The notes under the pieces are model-generated. The model did no database searches. It worked only from the letters and a program-made list of their open reading frames with translations, and was not told the DNA's origin. The position numbers and the translations under genes are program-made. A stretch of DNA of 64,000 nucleotides from Callorhinchus milii (Eukaryota): contig NW_024704746.1 in NCBI RefSeq assembly GCF_018977255.1, forward strand, positions 25,730,001 to 25,794,000, given 5' to 3'. Every line of letters starts with the position of its first letter. The first letter of the stretch is position 1. Positions 6,566 through 27,500 of this stretch are shown here, piece after piece.

Positions 6566-6607
6566 ATGTTGGCAGTATCACACACAGCACCACAGCTCCC
6601 AGCGGCC

Positions 6608-9600
6608 ATGCCTCGCTACACCGTGCACGTGAGGAGCGAGTGGCTGACGGTGCCCTGCAAGGACACGTGTAGCACCGTGTTGTGGTTGGGCCGAGAGGCC
6701 TTGAGACGCTACGTGAAGAACAAGCCAGACAATGGCGGGTTGGACTGTGTGGCTGACGTGACGTTCCTGATGAGACGCTGTCAGGGACAGGGATTGTTAG
6801 ATCCCGATGATGCCATTGAGGACGTTCTGGAAGACAATGATTTTGTGGAAGTTGGTAGGTTTCCTCTTCATTCACAAATGGCCAATGATGTCATTTACTG
6901 TTCTCATAATACGTCTCAAAGCGCTTCACACAAAACACTGACGGCAGATACACTTGCCATGAACCTGCTGAAGATCAATGAAGAGCTCAGTCAACCTCCC
7001 GGGGCAGATAGACAATAGGAGACGGAGTCTGTGCTGATGTGTACCAACACGATGGCCCCTTCTGTGCAGATCATTGCAATCTAATAAACAACAATAATAA
7101 TAATCCTGGCATTCGATACAGCGCCTGAGCACGTCATCGAGACATCTCAAAGCACTTCACAGGATACACTAAAGTGTAGTGACTGTGTATTTTCTGGGTG
7201 AAACGCAGCAGCCAATTGCGCACAGCAGCGTCCCACAAACAGTCGTGGGTTGAAGTGACCAAATTATAATTGCTTTTTTCTTCTTGAGGGATTATTATCA
7301 GACGTGTAGAGTAAGGAAACTTGCCCAAGGTTTCGCCCTGCTCGGGAATCGAACCTGGGTCCTCTCGCTAGCGAGGCGAGTGCTCTACCCCCTGAGCTAC
7401 AGGACTCCAACAAACAAAGCCCATTCAGGGTCATATTTACCTTATGACCTGAATGGACTGACAGAACCCTGATTTAACGTTTTCTTTGATGGACGGCACT
7501 TGTGACAACACAGCCCTCCCCAAGTATTGGAGTGTTACTATGTGATGTGTGTTTACATCAATGATTGGACCTGATTGATGTCTAAAGTCTTCTGGTTGTT
7601 CTGTTATATAGTTATCACAGGAGATGATTCCAGAGCCACAGAGTTCAACTCTTTGAGCACACAAAGAGCATTTCTGTATCCTTTGTCTTGTGTTTATTTT
7701 GCCATGTAATCAATGCTACGTACTGGTCGAATGCAGTGTCATGTATTGTATAGGTGTATCATTGTAATATTTGAGATTGATTATTATGAAAGAGTGCTCT
7801 TTGTCCAACTTGTGGTTACTCTTCTTTCGGGTGCTCTAACCACTGAGCTACAGGTCTCCAGAGTTAATAAACAGCTAAGGAGGCTGGTGCTACAAATCTA
7901 TCACATCATGTTACAAATTCTTAATAAATATTACAGAAAATATCGGGAGCCCCAGGAGGTAAGAGAAGACAGAATTATTGTACCACTCTAAATTTAATTT
8001 AACGTTGATTTAAAATCAGTAATGCTTTGTTTGGATGGATCTGAGCAGATGGTTTTGATGAAGACAGATCTTGGGAGAAACATTCTGCTTAAAGCATCGG
8101 AGATAAGATGTGAAATTGCATTATTAGAGTCATTTTGTTTTGCTCAGCCGGGTGTCTGACACATGCGGAAACCCGTCACCGTTGCTTAAGAGTCTCCAAA
8201 CCAAACTGAGAATTCCCCACATCCCAACTACACCTGGAAACCCCAGAGAGAGATTGTTGGGATGGAGTGCGCTCTCTCTCCCCCTCTGGAGGGACACATC
8301 TTGTTTACCTAATTCAGGAGAGTATTAGGTGCAGGTTGGCAAGAACCAAGGCTTGGGGGGAGTCCAGAGTGTGCGTTGGGGTAACTGCTGGAGTCTGACC
8401 AATTAAACCCAGACAGCTTAGCCATTGAGAGCGCTGTCTGGCAAATTTTAGTAAAGGCAGAGTAAGGGCAGAGGTTAAGGGCTGTGAAGGGCAAGTCTAG
8501 GTTAAACACCGAGAAGGTTTTTTATGTATGCTTTCAAAGGGAATTGGATAGGTACTTAAAAATGGAAAAATGTGTGGGGCTATGGGGTAAGAATATGGGA
8601 GTGGGACGAGTTGGGGCAATAGAGGGGGAGTGGGACTAGTTGGGGCAATAGTGGGGGAGTGGGACTAGTTGGTAGCCCTTTCAAAGAGCCAGCACAGGCA
8701 CGAGGGGCTGAATGGCCTCCTTCTGTGCTGTATGATGAGGTGGGTATTCTGGAAGGATGCGATCAGATGGGCTGAAATGTAGTTTCTAATCTGTAACTCA
8801 TGATCTCTTGTGAGTGATTGTTGTTCTCCTCAGTACATTGAGTTGGATGGAAAGACCTTAACCACAGAAAACCTGGTCAAGCTTGGTAAAGGGCTGTACA
8901 AGATCCAGGTACAGTGTTCTCTGTTAAGTAGGATTGCTTGACATTTGATATTAAAACCAATCGCTTCAATTAAAAACGGTTTGGCACCTGAATGCAGAAT
9001 GGATTCTTGTCTTTCAGCTCACTCCAGAGGCAGTCACAGGAGTCAAAAAATCCCGAGACCTTGTGGAGAAAATCATCAACGAAAACAAAGGTTGCACATT
9101 ACTCCGTCAATAATAATAATATTAAACTTTGTATTTGATATAACCCCTTATCATGTCTTCAAGACGTTTCGAAGTTTGTTACAGAATAGACTGTAAAGTG
9201 AATTGACTGTGTATTTTGTGGGCGAAACGCGGCAGCCAATTGCGCACAGCAGCGTCCCCACACACAGTCGTGCATTGAGTGACCAACATTTTTTTTAATC
9301 TGTCAAAAATGGAACAAATGCATGCTCTATTTCTACTTTGTTTGAAAAAAAATCTTGTCATCTAGAAACCCATCATTAGATATTCTCGAATCACTTCATG
9401 TGATATTTTAGAAATTGAAGTTAACACAAACTGAGGACATATGAGCATCGTGACTCCTAAACCTTATGTCTTCTAATATTTTCCATTGCAGCTGTGTATG
9501 GAATAACAACCGGCTTTGGGAAATTCGCCAGAATTGTTATTCCAAATAACAAGCTGGAGTAAGTATGTGGCCAGTTCTGTACTGTTTGGTGTAACGGTGA

Positions 9601-24500: not shown

Positions 24501-27500
24501 TCACTGCTGGGTTCTGACCATCATCCCTCTGAAATAGCAGGTAAGCAGTCCCATGGGTTTCAAATAGCGTTGCAATATTCTGAATGTGCTCATAATATTT
24601 GTATCAGTCTTCCTTGGAGTTCCATAGCGTAGTGGTTAGAACCCTCGTCTCACAAGCCAGAGGACCTGGGTTTGATTCCCGGGCAGGGTGAAACCTTAGG
24701 CAAGTTTCCTTACCCCACACACCTCTGTTTACTCAGCAGTAAGTAGGAACCCGCTTGTTAGTCGATTGGCCGATCGTTTTTCTGGGGGTAATAATCCCTT
24801 CAAAAAAAATAATAATTTGGTCCCTCAATCCACGGCTGTTTGTGTGCAATTGGCTGCCGCGTTTCGCCCACAATATGTTCTTTGAAGCGCTTTGAGATAT
24901 TGTCTCAACGACGTGATAAGGCGCTTTATCAAATGCAAGCATAATTATTATTATTATCGTTTTGTACATTTTTCACAGAAAGCCACAGGTTCTGTGATCG
25001 TGTCCAGGATGCATATACTCTACGATGTTGCCCTCAGGTAGCCAATATTTCATTGCGATCTGATGGTTGAAATGTTTCGGATGCATTACAGTAAACCTCA
25101 CATAAGTCATATCAGTTGGAACCAGACATTTATTATGTCTTATGCAAAGTAGGAGTCATTTCAAACTTGTATAGAATATAAACTGTTGAACGTGACTTGG
25201 GCAGATGTACGACTTAGTGATTATACGATTGATACAGATCAGAATTGTGCCAGTTTTACTCTGTGACTATTTGCACGATGTAACTTGTAACTGCCCTTCA
25301 AATTAAGAAAGCATGTGAAAGCTGTATAGCTCTGTTTAAATTGCCTACAAATACAGTCACTCCCCTCAAAGGAAAATCCTGTAAATTGCATTGAGATGTC
25401 TCGATGACATGAAATATTGCTATATGAAATGCAAGGATTATTATTATATTATTATTATAACTTGAGTACTTTTGTTTCAGGTACATGGGGTGGTGAATGA
25501 CACTATTGCTTTTGTGAAAAACATCATTCAGACTGAAATTAACAGTGCTACAGATAACCCTGTATCCTTTGTGAATTTAAACAACCGATAATATGCAACG
25601 GCATAATATGTTCTAAGTTATAAATAATAATAATGTGATAATTATTAGTATTATCAATGATAAATTGTAATTAATTAGAATAATGAGGTGATAAGTTGTA
25701 AATAATAATATAAGTTAGTAAGTTATAAGTGATAAAGCTCTATATCTAATGCAAGGCTTGTTATTATTATTGCTAATATATATACCCACAAATATATACA
25801 GTCAATTCACTTTACAGTATTTTCTGTGAAGTGCTTTGGGACGCCTCGAAGATGTGATACGGCGCTGTATCAAATACAAGGATTATTATTATTACTGTAA
25901 TACAGCCTCCATTCTCACTCTATCGTATTTCATCATTAGCAATTAAAGATGAATTGGAAAAACGTACCATAGCAGTAAATTATGGTTTGCCCCCTAGCCC
26001 TTGATACCCTGACCTAACAAACATCTCTCCACCTCAGTCTTGATAATGTGAATGGATCCACAGCCATGATCCACAGTCTTTTGGCGGAAAGAGAGAGTTC
26101 CAGATTTCCACTGGCCTTTGCATAAAAAACTGCCCCTGATTTCACTCCTAAATGGCATCGCTGTATTGTTACGATGATGCCCCCATTGCATTGACTTTGT
26201 CAATCTACTACTGAAATTCTACTTAAAATAAGTCGGATTTCAGCAGTACATAGACAGAGTCTTCCCAGCAGTTTTAAACCTTAATTTATTTACTAAAGAT
26301 GGTGTTTGCAGAAAGAGGAGAGACCATTTCTGGGGGAAACTTTCACGGAGAATATCCCGCAAAAGTAAGTGGCCATTTTAATGATTGTTTTTGTAACCTG
26401 TTCATTGACCTGAGTCTCACATATAATATCCACAGTGTTGTGTTGTCTGGAAGCTGAGTGTTTAGAGCACTTGCCTCACAAGTGACTGTTTGTGGGACGC
26501 TGCTGTGTGCAATTGGCTGCCAAGTTTCGCCCACAAAATATACAGTCAATTCACTTCGCAGTATATTCTGTGAAGCACTTTGAGACGTCTCATAGATGTG
26601 ATATGGCATTGTATCAAATGCAAAGATTATTATTATGATGATGTTGATTCTGCTTGTGTTAGGCCCTCGACTACCTGGCTATTGGTGTTCATGAACTGGC
26701 CGCGATCAGTGAGAGGAGAATCGAGAGGCTGTGTAACCCTTCTCTCAGTGAATTGCCAGCCTTCCTGGTCAATGAAGGAGGGTTGAACTCTGGTTTTATG
26801 ATCGCTCATTGTTCAGCAGCTGCTTTAGGTAAGTTAGCATTCCCTTCAAAAATAATAATAATTTAGTCACTCAATCCACAACTGTGTGTGGGACGCTGCT
26901 GTGCGCAATTGGCTGCTCACAAAACACACAGTCACTACACATTATAGTGTATTCTGTGAAGTGCTTTGAGACGTCTTGAAGACGTGATAAGGTGCTATAT
27001 CAAATGCCAGGATTATTATTATTATTACTTCTCCCTTGTTTGGCATCAAATCCCACCACAGTTCAGTGCTCAGATACGCTACGAAAGGTGCTCTATATTT
27101 ATATACAGTAAATGTAAAATACAGAAAATACAGTAAAAGTTGTTGTTTGTTACATTTGACCTTTTCAGAAAGCCTAAGGCACTGAGCACAGCCTTATTTT
27201 TATTTCCTGCAGTGTCTGAGAACAAGGTTCTGTGCCACCCGTCATCAGTTGACTCCCTGTCCACCAGTGCAGCCACTGAGGATCATGTCTCTATGGGGGC
27301 TGGGCTGCCAGGAAAGCCTTGAGGGTCATAGAGCACGTGGAGCAAGGTAACCCTGACTGAAACCACAGAGACTGAGGATCACTTTAATGCTGCATCGTGA
27401 ACGCCTGTGGTTTGTGATTAGAGCACTCACTGAGTGAGCGAGAGGACCTGGGTTCAATTCCCAGACAGGGCGAAACCTTAAGCAAGTTTCCTTACTCCAC

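Follow-up and report, generated by a model that had tools for sequence, protein, structure and literature searches.

Introduction

Gene conversion that acts exon by exon, with selection on the residues that distinguish the duplicates, is already known from the ATP1A1 genes of the frog Leptodactylus and from exon 2 of the vasopressin/oxytocin genes. Here, we compare with these systems a tandem pair of histidine ammonia-lyase (HAL) genes of the elephant shark, Callorhinchus milii. The pair lies in a window of 64,000 nucleotides, which is the whole stretch of DNA that was analysed (RefSeq assembly GCF_018977255.1, contig NW_024704746.1, positions 25,730,001 to 25,794,000 of the forward strand), and all coordinates below are those of the window.

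The ATP1A1 R and S genes of Leptodactylus (bioRxiv 10.1101/2020.08.04.234435) resemble the HAL pair in being tandem same-strand duplicates that undergo concerted evolution, while their function-defining residues are kept apart by selection. There, however, the entire coding sequence clusters by species in nucleotide trees, and a single frog genus is concerned, whereas in the HAL pair conversion appears to be confined to long exons, other silent sites are near saturation, and the pair itself spans at least all cartilaginous fishes. The vasotocin/oxytocin genes of the elephant shark are likewise ancient neighbouring duplicates with one near-identical exon, exon 2, which is 97.1% identical, the similarity extending into the flanking introns by 14 and 6 bp (PMC2656470). 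The authors of that study rejected conversion on the basis of GC3, the G+C content of third codon positions. In the HAL pair, a poorly conserved exon is identical and several exons follow a rule of length, which reopens the reading of the vasotocin/oxytocin identity.

Two HAL genes have also been described in Xenopus, where HAL1 and HAL2 are approximately 84% identical, one being more divergent and the two being expressed differently; they were described as amphibian-specific or lost in mammals (PMC3874607). This was the only HAL duplication found in our literature search. That search, which had little reach into subscription journals, found no description of the HAL-like family considered here, of the loss of His83 (residue numbering throughout is that of Pseudomonas putida HAL, by alignment), or of the conversion pattern. 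Two frog HAL sequences (P0064, P0288) keep His83 and group together (support 98/89), and neither is established as Xenopus HAL1. The genes of the family are already in databases as 'HAL-like' (HAL-L in the following). We consider it probable that the window holds a tandem pair of HAL and HAL-L, that the six longest exons of the two are alike through conversion that needs unbroken homology, and that the paralog without His83 is a lyase for another substrate.

Results and discussion

Identity between the two copies is concentrated in a few exons

The window contains two same-strand tandem HAL genes with 20 coding exons each and with matching splice positions. Copy A, the upstream HAL-L gene (6608..16866, + strand), has an exon map and translation that give an intact 629-residue frame from the ATG shared by the two copies, with the domains PF00221 and PF12053. 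It matches the database model P0004 ('HAL-like') exon by exon, P0004 starting 14 residues further upstream. Copy B, the canonical HAL downstream (18558..29847, + strand), matches P0124, and the proteins of the two copies are 81% identical.

A first-pass annotation of the window, made from its letters, had noted identity or near-identity in exons 1, 9, 11, 16 and 17, heavy divergence, including at silent sites, in the remaining exons that it listed, and introns that cannot be aligned. All of these observations were reproduced. Exon 1 of copy A, which encodes the Par3/HAL N-terminal domain, forms with the 23 nt before it and the 8 intronic nt after it a tract (6585..6862, + strand) that is identical at 278 of 278 positions to the tract of copy B (18535..18812, + strand), for which the upper 95% bound on divergence is 1.1%. 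In exon 9, which encodes the Ala-Ser-Gly triad of the 4-methylideneimidazole-5-one (MIO) group, 101 bp including 10 nt of the acceptor (10900..11000, + strand) match 22945-23045 exactly. The tract of exon 11 (11703..11847, + strand; Asn195 equivalent) and its partner (23660-23804) have one internal difference and share 118 bp exactly (11703-11820 = 23660-23777) plus a further 26 bp; the whole exon has five differences, four of them within its first nine bases. Exon 17, which encodes the equivalent of Glu414, lies in a tract that takes in 6 nt of the acceptor and 12 nt of the donor (14556..14708, + strand) and equals the tract of copy B (27207..27358, + strand) save for one G. The 5' part of exon 16 (14062..14136, + strand) is near-identical to 26676-26750, with exact runs at 14062-14086 and 14091-14136. 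Exon 8 of copy A (10365..10490, + strand; partner 22517-22642), which ends in a GC donor, appears to be partly or formerly converted.

The single G that separates the exon 17 tracts is a 1-base indel in a run of six G in copy A and five in copy B (27295-27299), and it frameshifts copy B as assembled. Because the base is present in a second haplotype (G000:C67) and the database proteins P0005 and P0124 read through, the missing G is most likely an assembly error, one that could cost canonical HAL its annotation in this contig. C67, a 291-kb contig, carries the whole pair (93000-122999), with both genes present and the identical tracts repeated in them, and is an unpurged duplicate in the assembly. 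It differs from the window by 41 single-nucleotide polymorphisms (SNPs) in 23,989 columns (0.17%), and the identity of the tracts is at the level of such allelic variation. Of the five exonic haplotype SNPs, one, at a silent fourfold site, matches the base of the paralog, which is no more than expected by chance. Exon 1 matches Callorhinchus milii histidine ammonia-lyase records at 99-100%, and within the genome it matched C5 and C67 only.

Silent divergence, which the first-pass annotation had proposed to compare exon by exon, was strongly uneven rather than uniform (chi2 158, df 18, P 2e-24). Exon 3, which has only four silent sites, was excluded from these tests, leaving 19 exons. The proportion of silent differences (pS) was 0 in exons 1 and 17, 0.08 in exon 11, 0.12 in exon 9, 0.27 in exon 8, 0.39 in exon 16 and 0.43-0.82 in the others. 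The significance of the identical runs was assessed with a Sawyer-type permutation test on the 470 codons that encode the same residue in both copies. It was high for exon 1 (0 of 20000 permutations), exon 11 (P 0.00025) and exon 17 (P 0.0003) and weak for exon 9 (P 0.03), and those in exons 8 and 16 did not reach significance by themselves (P 0.35 and 0.87). With repeats masked, blastn at E<0.01 found no match within any of the 19 intron pairs. GC3 was higher in the long exons (0.57-0.58 versus 0.45-0.47, P 0.002-0.005), a weak effect driven by exons 1 and 17. At position 11796, in exon 11, the sole X5 contig reads T and both window copies read C, which may reflect a polymorphism shared by the paralogs or a dropped branch.

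The duplication is old

HAL-like second genes were found in sharks, bichirs, gars and sturgeons, on contigs sized as those of HAL and often under neighbouring accessions, and similar HAL-like proteins were found in rays and in two catfish. In the tree of the unconverted exons, copy A clustered with the HAL-L of sharks and rays (99/95), and bichir HAL-L joined this cluster (89/98), the catfish forming a long unplaced branch. Gar and sturgeon HAL-L, in which most exons are homogenised, were left out of this tree; depending on the analysis, the trees excluded exons 3 and 20 or the converted exons. A species-specific duplication, in which the two window copies are held together, was rejected (approximately unbiased test, p-AU 2e-10). 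Since copy A groups with elasmobranch HAL-L and the topology with the copies together is rejected, these protein trees show the duplication to be at least as old as the chimaera-shark split. This split took place approximately 400 million years ago.

A duplication in the ancestor of jawed vertebrates is favoured, and two results speak for caution about so early a date. A chondrichthyan-only duplication, with all cartilaginous-fish genes held together, was not rejected (p-AU 0.073), and gar and catfish HAL-L fall outside the others in the tree of exons 2 and 4-7. Holding all HAL-L together was also not rejected (p-AU 0.40). HAL may have been duplicated independently in ray-finned fishes, and the catfish proteins suggest that HAL-L survives or re-arose in some teleosts. 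Whole-gene trees would misdate duplications that are subject to exon-wise conversion.

The comparisons across species are at the protein level and use database gene models, some of which are irregular. The two catfish proteins (P0250 of Silurus and P0251 of Tachysurus) are HAL-like, lack His83 and come from gene models that are apparently fused from repeated parts, and several shark HAL-L models (P0128, P0130, short isoforms) skip exon 17 or lack the N-terminal domain.

The paralogs resemble each other within species in the converted exons

The first-pass annotation had predicted that converted exons would group by species and unconverted exons by paralog. At the protein level this was found for exon 1 and for the unconverted exons, and exons 9, 11 and 17 offered few informative sites. 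In the exon 1 tree, the paralogs pair by species in elephant shark, bichir, gar and paddlefish; the two Huso copies are adjacent in an unresolved fork, and shark and ray HAL-L stay apart. Over the 82 residues of exon 1, the paralogs are identical in elephant shark and in gar and differ at 0-3 positions in sturgeons and paddlefish and at 16 in bichirs; the two sharks for which full models exist have 33 and 41 differences (40-50% divergent). The same exon thus converts in some lineages and escapes in others. Quartets of the two elephant shark genes and those of Heterodontus contained 33 sites of the paralog type, none of them in exons 1, 8, 9, 11, 14 or 17, and six sites of the conversion type, all in exons 1, 9, 11 and 14. 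Lineage-specific residues common to both paralogs were also seen in sharks, in exons 8, 9 and 11.

Few exons are less conserved between orthologs than exon 1 (mean p-distance 0.30), yet none of its 247 nucleotides differs between the paralogs. It differs from shark HAL at 14-30 of 82 residues, and among the matches listed, the orthologous exon differs at at least 17 and at least 15 bases in two other organisms (B and C), in a contig comparison along copy A (80% likeness) that could be read for exons 1 and 8 and some small pieces. Because exon 1 diverges in this way among orthologs and in organisms B and C, selection at the nucleotide level cannot, on these comparisons, explain its identity between the paralogs.

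Of the 12 intron nucleotides that the exon 17 tract includes, 8 lie past the donor consensus (a chance of roughly 0.001 when 38 flanks are considered), which argues that the template was unspliced, either genomic DNA or pre-mRNA and not spliced cDNA. The shared exon 1 differs from shark HAL at 14-16 residues in two of the three sequences compared and at 28 in skate, as against 30-39 for elasmobranch HAL-L. Since it is closer to HAL, the direction of conversion in exon 1 is suggested to have been mainly from HAL to HAL-L. Taken together, the trees, quartets and permutation test support non-allelic gene conversion between the tandem paralogs, and with it the earlier proposal of an old duplication followed by recent homogenisation confined to exons.

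Exon length predicts silent divergence between the copies

The six exons with the lowest pS (1, 17, 11, 9, 8 and 16) are the six longest of the 19 tested, for which the chance is 1/C(19,6) = 3.7e-5. The converted exons measure 126-247 nt, and every exon of 109 nt or less is unconverted. The pS is 0.14 in the long exons versus 0.65 in the short ones, and exon length correlates with pS (Spearman -0.78), also when the protein divergence of the shark paralogs is controlled for (partial correlation -0.68, P 0.001; reverse partial correlation 0.36, P 0.13). Short exons 6, 14 and 15, which encode Tyr53, Asn313 and Phe329, have a low proportion of nonsynonymous differences (pN 0.04-0.08) but a pS of 0.49-0.76, as expected of unconverted sequence, although conversion would alter little in them; in silent divergence, they and exon 12 are on a par with the 'pocket' exons. 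These values suggest a homology-length threshold near 110-125 bp. Conversion has been reported to drop steeply with short homology but to be able to occur below approximately 200 bp (PMC3924818).

Four observations temper the rule of length. Exon length is not independent of protein similarity (rho -0.66), and 19 exons cannot fully separate the two. The rule is not universal, as exon 1 is divergent in sharks. Short exons 10 and 12-14 are identical at the protein level in sturgeons. The tracts, at 100-280 bp, are at or under the efficient minimum of approximately 200 bp cited for yeast (PMC3924818).

We propose that conversion persisted here in isolated pieces. As the introns have no alignable sequence, each exon is an isolated island of homology. 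Islands of approximately 125 nt or more would keep converting and stay identical, a state that reinforces itself, and shorter exons, no longer reaching the threshold, would have diverged until nearly saturated, irrespective of the constraint on the protein. An island once lost would stay lost, exon 1 being identical here and in gar, nearly so in sturgeons and divergent in two sharks. The pair is a natural experiment on the persistence of conversion once introns have diverged.

Selection would be superimposed on length, in that it appears to hold exons 2-7 apart, as is best seen in sturgeons and gar. The Huso paralogs differ at 6 of 497 residues over exons 1 and 8-19 (5 of 415 over exons 8-19 alone) and at 42 of 114 over exons 2-7; the gar paralogs differ at 6 of 287 residues in exons 11-18 and at 34 of 113 in exons 2-7. 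Exon 7, which in copy A has 38 nt (9642..9679, + strand) and carries Ala-Ser in place of the Ser82-His83 dyad, differs between the paralogs in 14 of 14 species pairs and was never homogenised in any pair examined. The suggestion that selection maintains a divergent pocket is thus supported by sturgeons and gar, whereas in the elephant shark it is exon length, not a role in the pocket, that fits the pattern.

HAL-L lacks the specificity residue of histidine ammonia-lyase

Copy A matches PF00221 over the catalytic region (587.7 bits, residues 134-597 of P0004). With histidine ammonia-lyase (EC 4.3.1.3; PF00221 and PF12053; P. putida structures 1GKJ/1B8F, 6V6H), it shares the fold, the MIO triad, the catalytic Tyr, Asn195, Gln277, Asn313, Phe329 and Glu414. 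Unlike that enzyme, copy A lacks the Ser-His specificity dyad (82-83), Tyr280 and Arg283, the residue that anchors the carboxylate, and its C-terminus is shorter. Tyr280 and Arg283 are replaced in exon 13 (12788..12846, + strand) by Phe and Cys. The divergent pocket proposed in the first-pass annotation is supported for the upstream copy. In copy B, all 14 active-site positions are canonical, and the frame is intact in haplotype C67.

His83 was present in 36 of 36 canonical vertebrate rows of the alignment and in 0 of 21 HAL-L rows, in which it is replaced mostly by Thr, Ser, Ala or Cys and by Asp in gars. All 21 HAL-L keep Tyr53, Ala-Ser-Gly, Asn195, Gln277, Met382 and Glu414, and most keep Tyr280 (20/21) and Arg283 (19/21). 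Among 121 full-length diverse HAL representatives out of the 150 listed, His83 and Tyr280 were each present in 120 and Arg283 in all. The sole representative without His83 is P0429, which has Asn instead and may be a specificity-shifted microbial relative. Basking shark HAL-L carries the same Arg283Cys replacement as the elephant shark, apparently in parallel.

In Geobacillus HAL, mutation of the equivalent His to Leu abolished activity on histidine, and an Arg-to-Lys mutant gained activity on histidinamide (PMC11432326). The dN/dS between the copies is approximately 0.14 over the unconverted exons, copy A having 75-79 unique changes versus 16-18 in HAL (4-5 times more), and shark HAL-L P0131 is modelled confidently (pLDDT 96). 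On our reading of these data, HAL-L is maintained as a protein but does not work efficiently as a histidase. Of the functions considered, a lyase with a changed substrate is the one we lean towards. Such an enzyme would form the MIO group, use the catalytic Tyr loop and have an enlarged ring pocket, and a ring-substituted histidine such as an N-methylhistidine is a first guess at its substrate. For the elephant shark copy, Tyr280Phe and Arg283Cys lead us to expect either an additional alteration at the carboxylate end or a strongly reduced turnover. The MIO-less trimethylammonia-lyases (ergothionase and histidine betaine lyase), which lack the Ala-Ser-Gly triad (bioRxiv 10.64898/2026.04.22.720169), were rejected as a class for HAL-L, all 21 members of which have the triad.

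A precedent for a HAL relative shifted to ring-methylated histidine is a bacterial N-tau-methylhistidine ammonia-lyase reportedly described by Beliaeva et al. in 2022. The bacterial enzyme is said to come with an adapted urocanase. A second urocanase was sought in the elephant shark genome and one locus was found, which is a lower bound, so that no matched downstream enzyme was seen and a full parallel pathway is not indicated. This result counts against a changed substrate, as do two others: the set of 21 HAL-L was picked partly by its motif at His83 and is to that extent circular, and in the elephant shark the MIO triad, Asn195 and Glu414 are encoded by converted exons, so that the presence of these residues cannot be taken as a sign of selection on HAL-L.

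The best-surviving alternative accepts conversion as described but takes HAL-L, at least in this species, as a pseudoenzyme with no or very weak catalytic activity, which would serve HAL as a regulatory or dominant-negative partner. Copy A has lost Ser82, His83, Tyr280 and Arg283, each 98-100% conserved in the 121 representatives, its rapid evolution fits a loss of activity, and so do the loss of Arg283 in basking shark and the position of the triad in a converted exon. Yet Tyr53, Gln277, Asn313 and Phe329, which lie in unconverted exons, are retained by all HAL-L rows that extend over these positions, nearly all HAL-L keep Tyr280 and Arg283, and the residues that replace His83 are mostly small, as for a reshaped pocket. 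We regard this alternative as unlikely. A weak or dead partner subunit ranks second for HAL-L after a changed substrate, and is doubtful.

According to a 2024 paper (PMC11432326), essentially no natural MIO enzyme is known whose specificity goes beyond His, Phe and Tyr. As a conserved paralog of vertebrates in which His83 is replaced and the catalytic machinery is intact, HAL-L is a candidate for a MIO enzyme of new specificity. The HAL-L enzyme is thus the most valuable lead from this locus, with the rule of length second. Tentatively, and at odds that we place below even, HAL-L could be an overlooked jawed-vertebrate family that most teleosts and tetrapods have lost, and the first MIO enzyme of animals whose substrate is not histidine (e.g. 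ring-methylated or thio-substituted histidine). It would have survived for >400 million years next to a gene that goes on overwriting its long exons, because its specificity residue sits in a 38-nt exon that is too short to convert and is guarded by selection. If this were true, exon length would decide which parts of an old duplicate can diverge.

Other explanations for the identical exons

The first-pass annotation had explained the choice of exons by shared interfaces: any exon could convert, selection would favour conversion in the interface exons of a HAL/HAL-L heterotetramer, and it would remove conversion from the pocket exons. The constant difference of exon 7 and the distinctness of exons 2-7 in sturgeons and gar are consistent with this explanation, as is the correlation of pN and pS across exons (rho 0.69). 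HAL is also a tetramer whose active sites are built from three monomers (PMC11432326). What it fails to account for is that the converted exons are the six longest and that the short, conserved catalytic exons 6, 14 and 15 are unconverted. In the predicted fold of P0131, only one of five long helices lies wholly within a converted exon. The long helices at residues ~400-422, 497-513 and 552-567, which we take to form the tetramer core, are mostly in unconverted sequence. Compatible interfaces, moreover, need conserved residues, not identical silent sites, and exon 1 is not homogenised in sharks. Because length predicts pS, conserved short exons are unconverted and one helix in five falls in a converted exon, an interface explanation is not needed. 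We consider it improbable, and a HAL/HAL-L heterotetramer has no direct support here.

An artefact of assembly or polishing is a very remote prospect. It draws on the uncorrected homopolymer error inside the exon 17 tract and on the origin of both haplotypes in one assembly, the evidence consisting of assembled contigs. However, the tracts are short and flanked by unique intron, and C67 has one private change (at 18734) inside the exon 1 tract of copy B only. Database models under older accessions give the same proteins, P0002 reading from the identical exon 1 into intron specific to copy A. A contig of another sample matches 6563-6854 without a difference, although only 22 of its letters are specific to copy A (bar 31), so that this match is a hint. 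Identity is graded, with internal mismatches in exons 8, 9, 11 and 16, and exon 1 is also homogenised in gar and three sturgeon and paddlefish species.

That purifying selection on regulatory or splicing elements kept the exons identical since the duplication, without conversion, is hardly credible: the same argument has been made for exon 2 of elephant shark vasotocin/oxytocin (PMC2656470), and exons 9, 11 and 17 do encode highly conserved protein, but exon 1 is poorly conserved among orthologs and identical between the paralogs.

Surroundings of the pair and minor observations

No third HAL copy was found within the window. Upstream of the pair, an exon of LTA4H (2010..2111, + strand; PF09127, E 2.5e-10) serves as a marker of synteny, and downstream, tail to tail with HAL, lies an amidohydrolase exon (36281..36436, - strand; PF01979, E 5e-10), which we take to be AMDHD1 from its position. 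This is presumably the usual neighbourhood of vertebrate HAL. An X5 contig covers exon 20 and the downstream 3' region of copy A; that X5 represents RNA is a guess, and the contig is a hint only.

Introns 2 and 14 of both copies (donors 7676, 13055, 19730 and 25562) have U12-like donors and upstream branch-like motifs by comparison with the consensus of the minor spliceosome. Because these signals occur in both genes, two minor introns were probably kept through the HAL duplication. GC donors were seen in intron 19 of both copies (16143 and 28183) and in intron 8 of copy A only (10491). Finally, G-rich or C-rich minisatellite arrays with strong GC skew occur at 31450-32300, 34800-35510 and 57900-59240.

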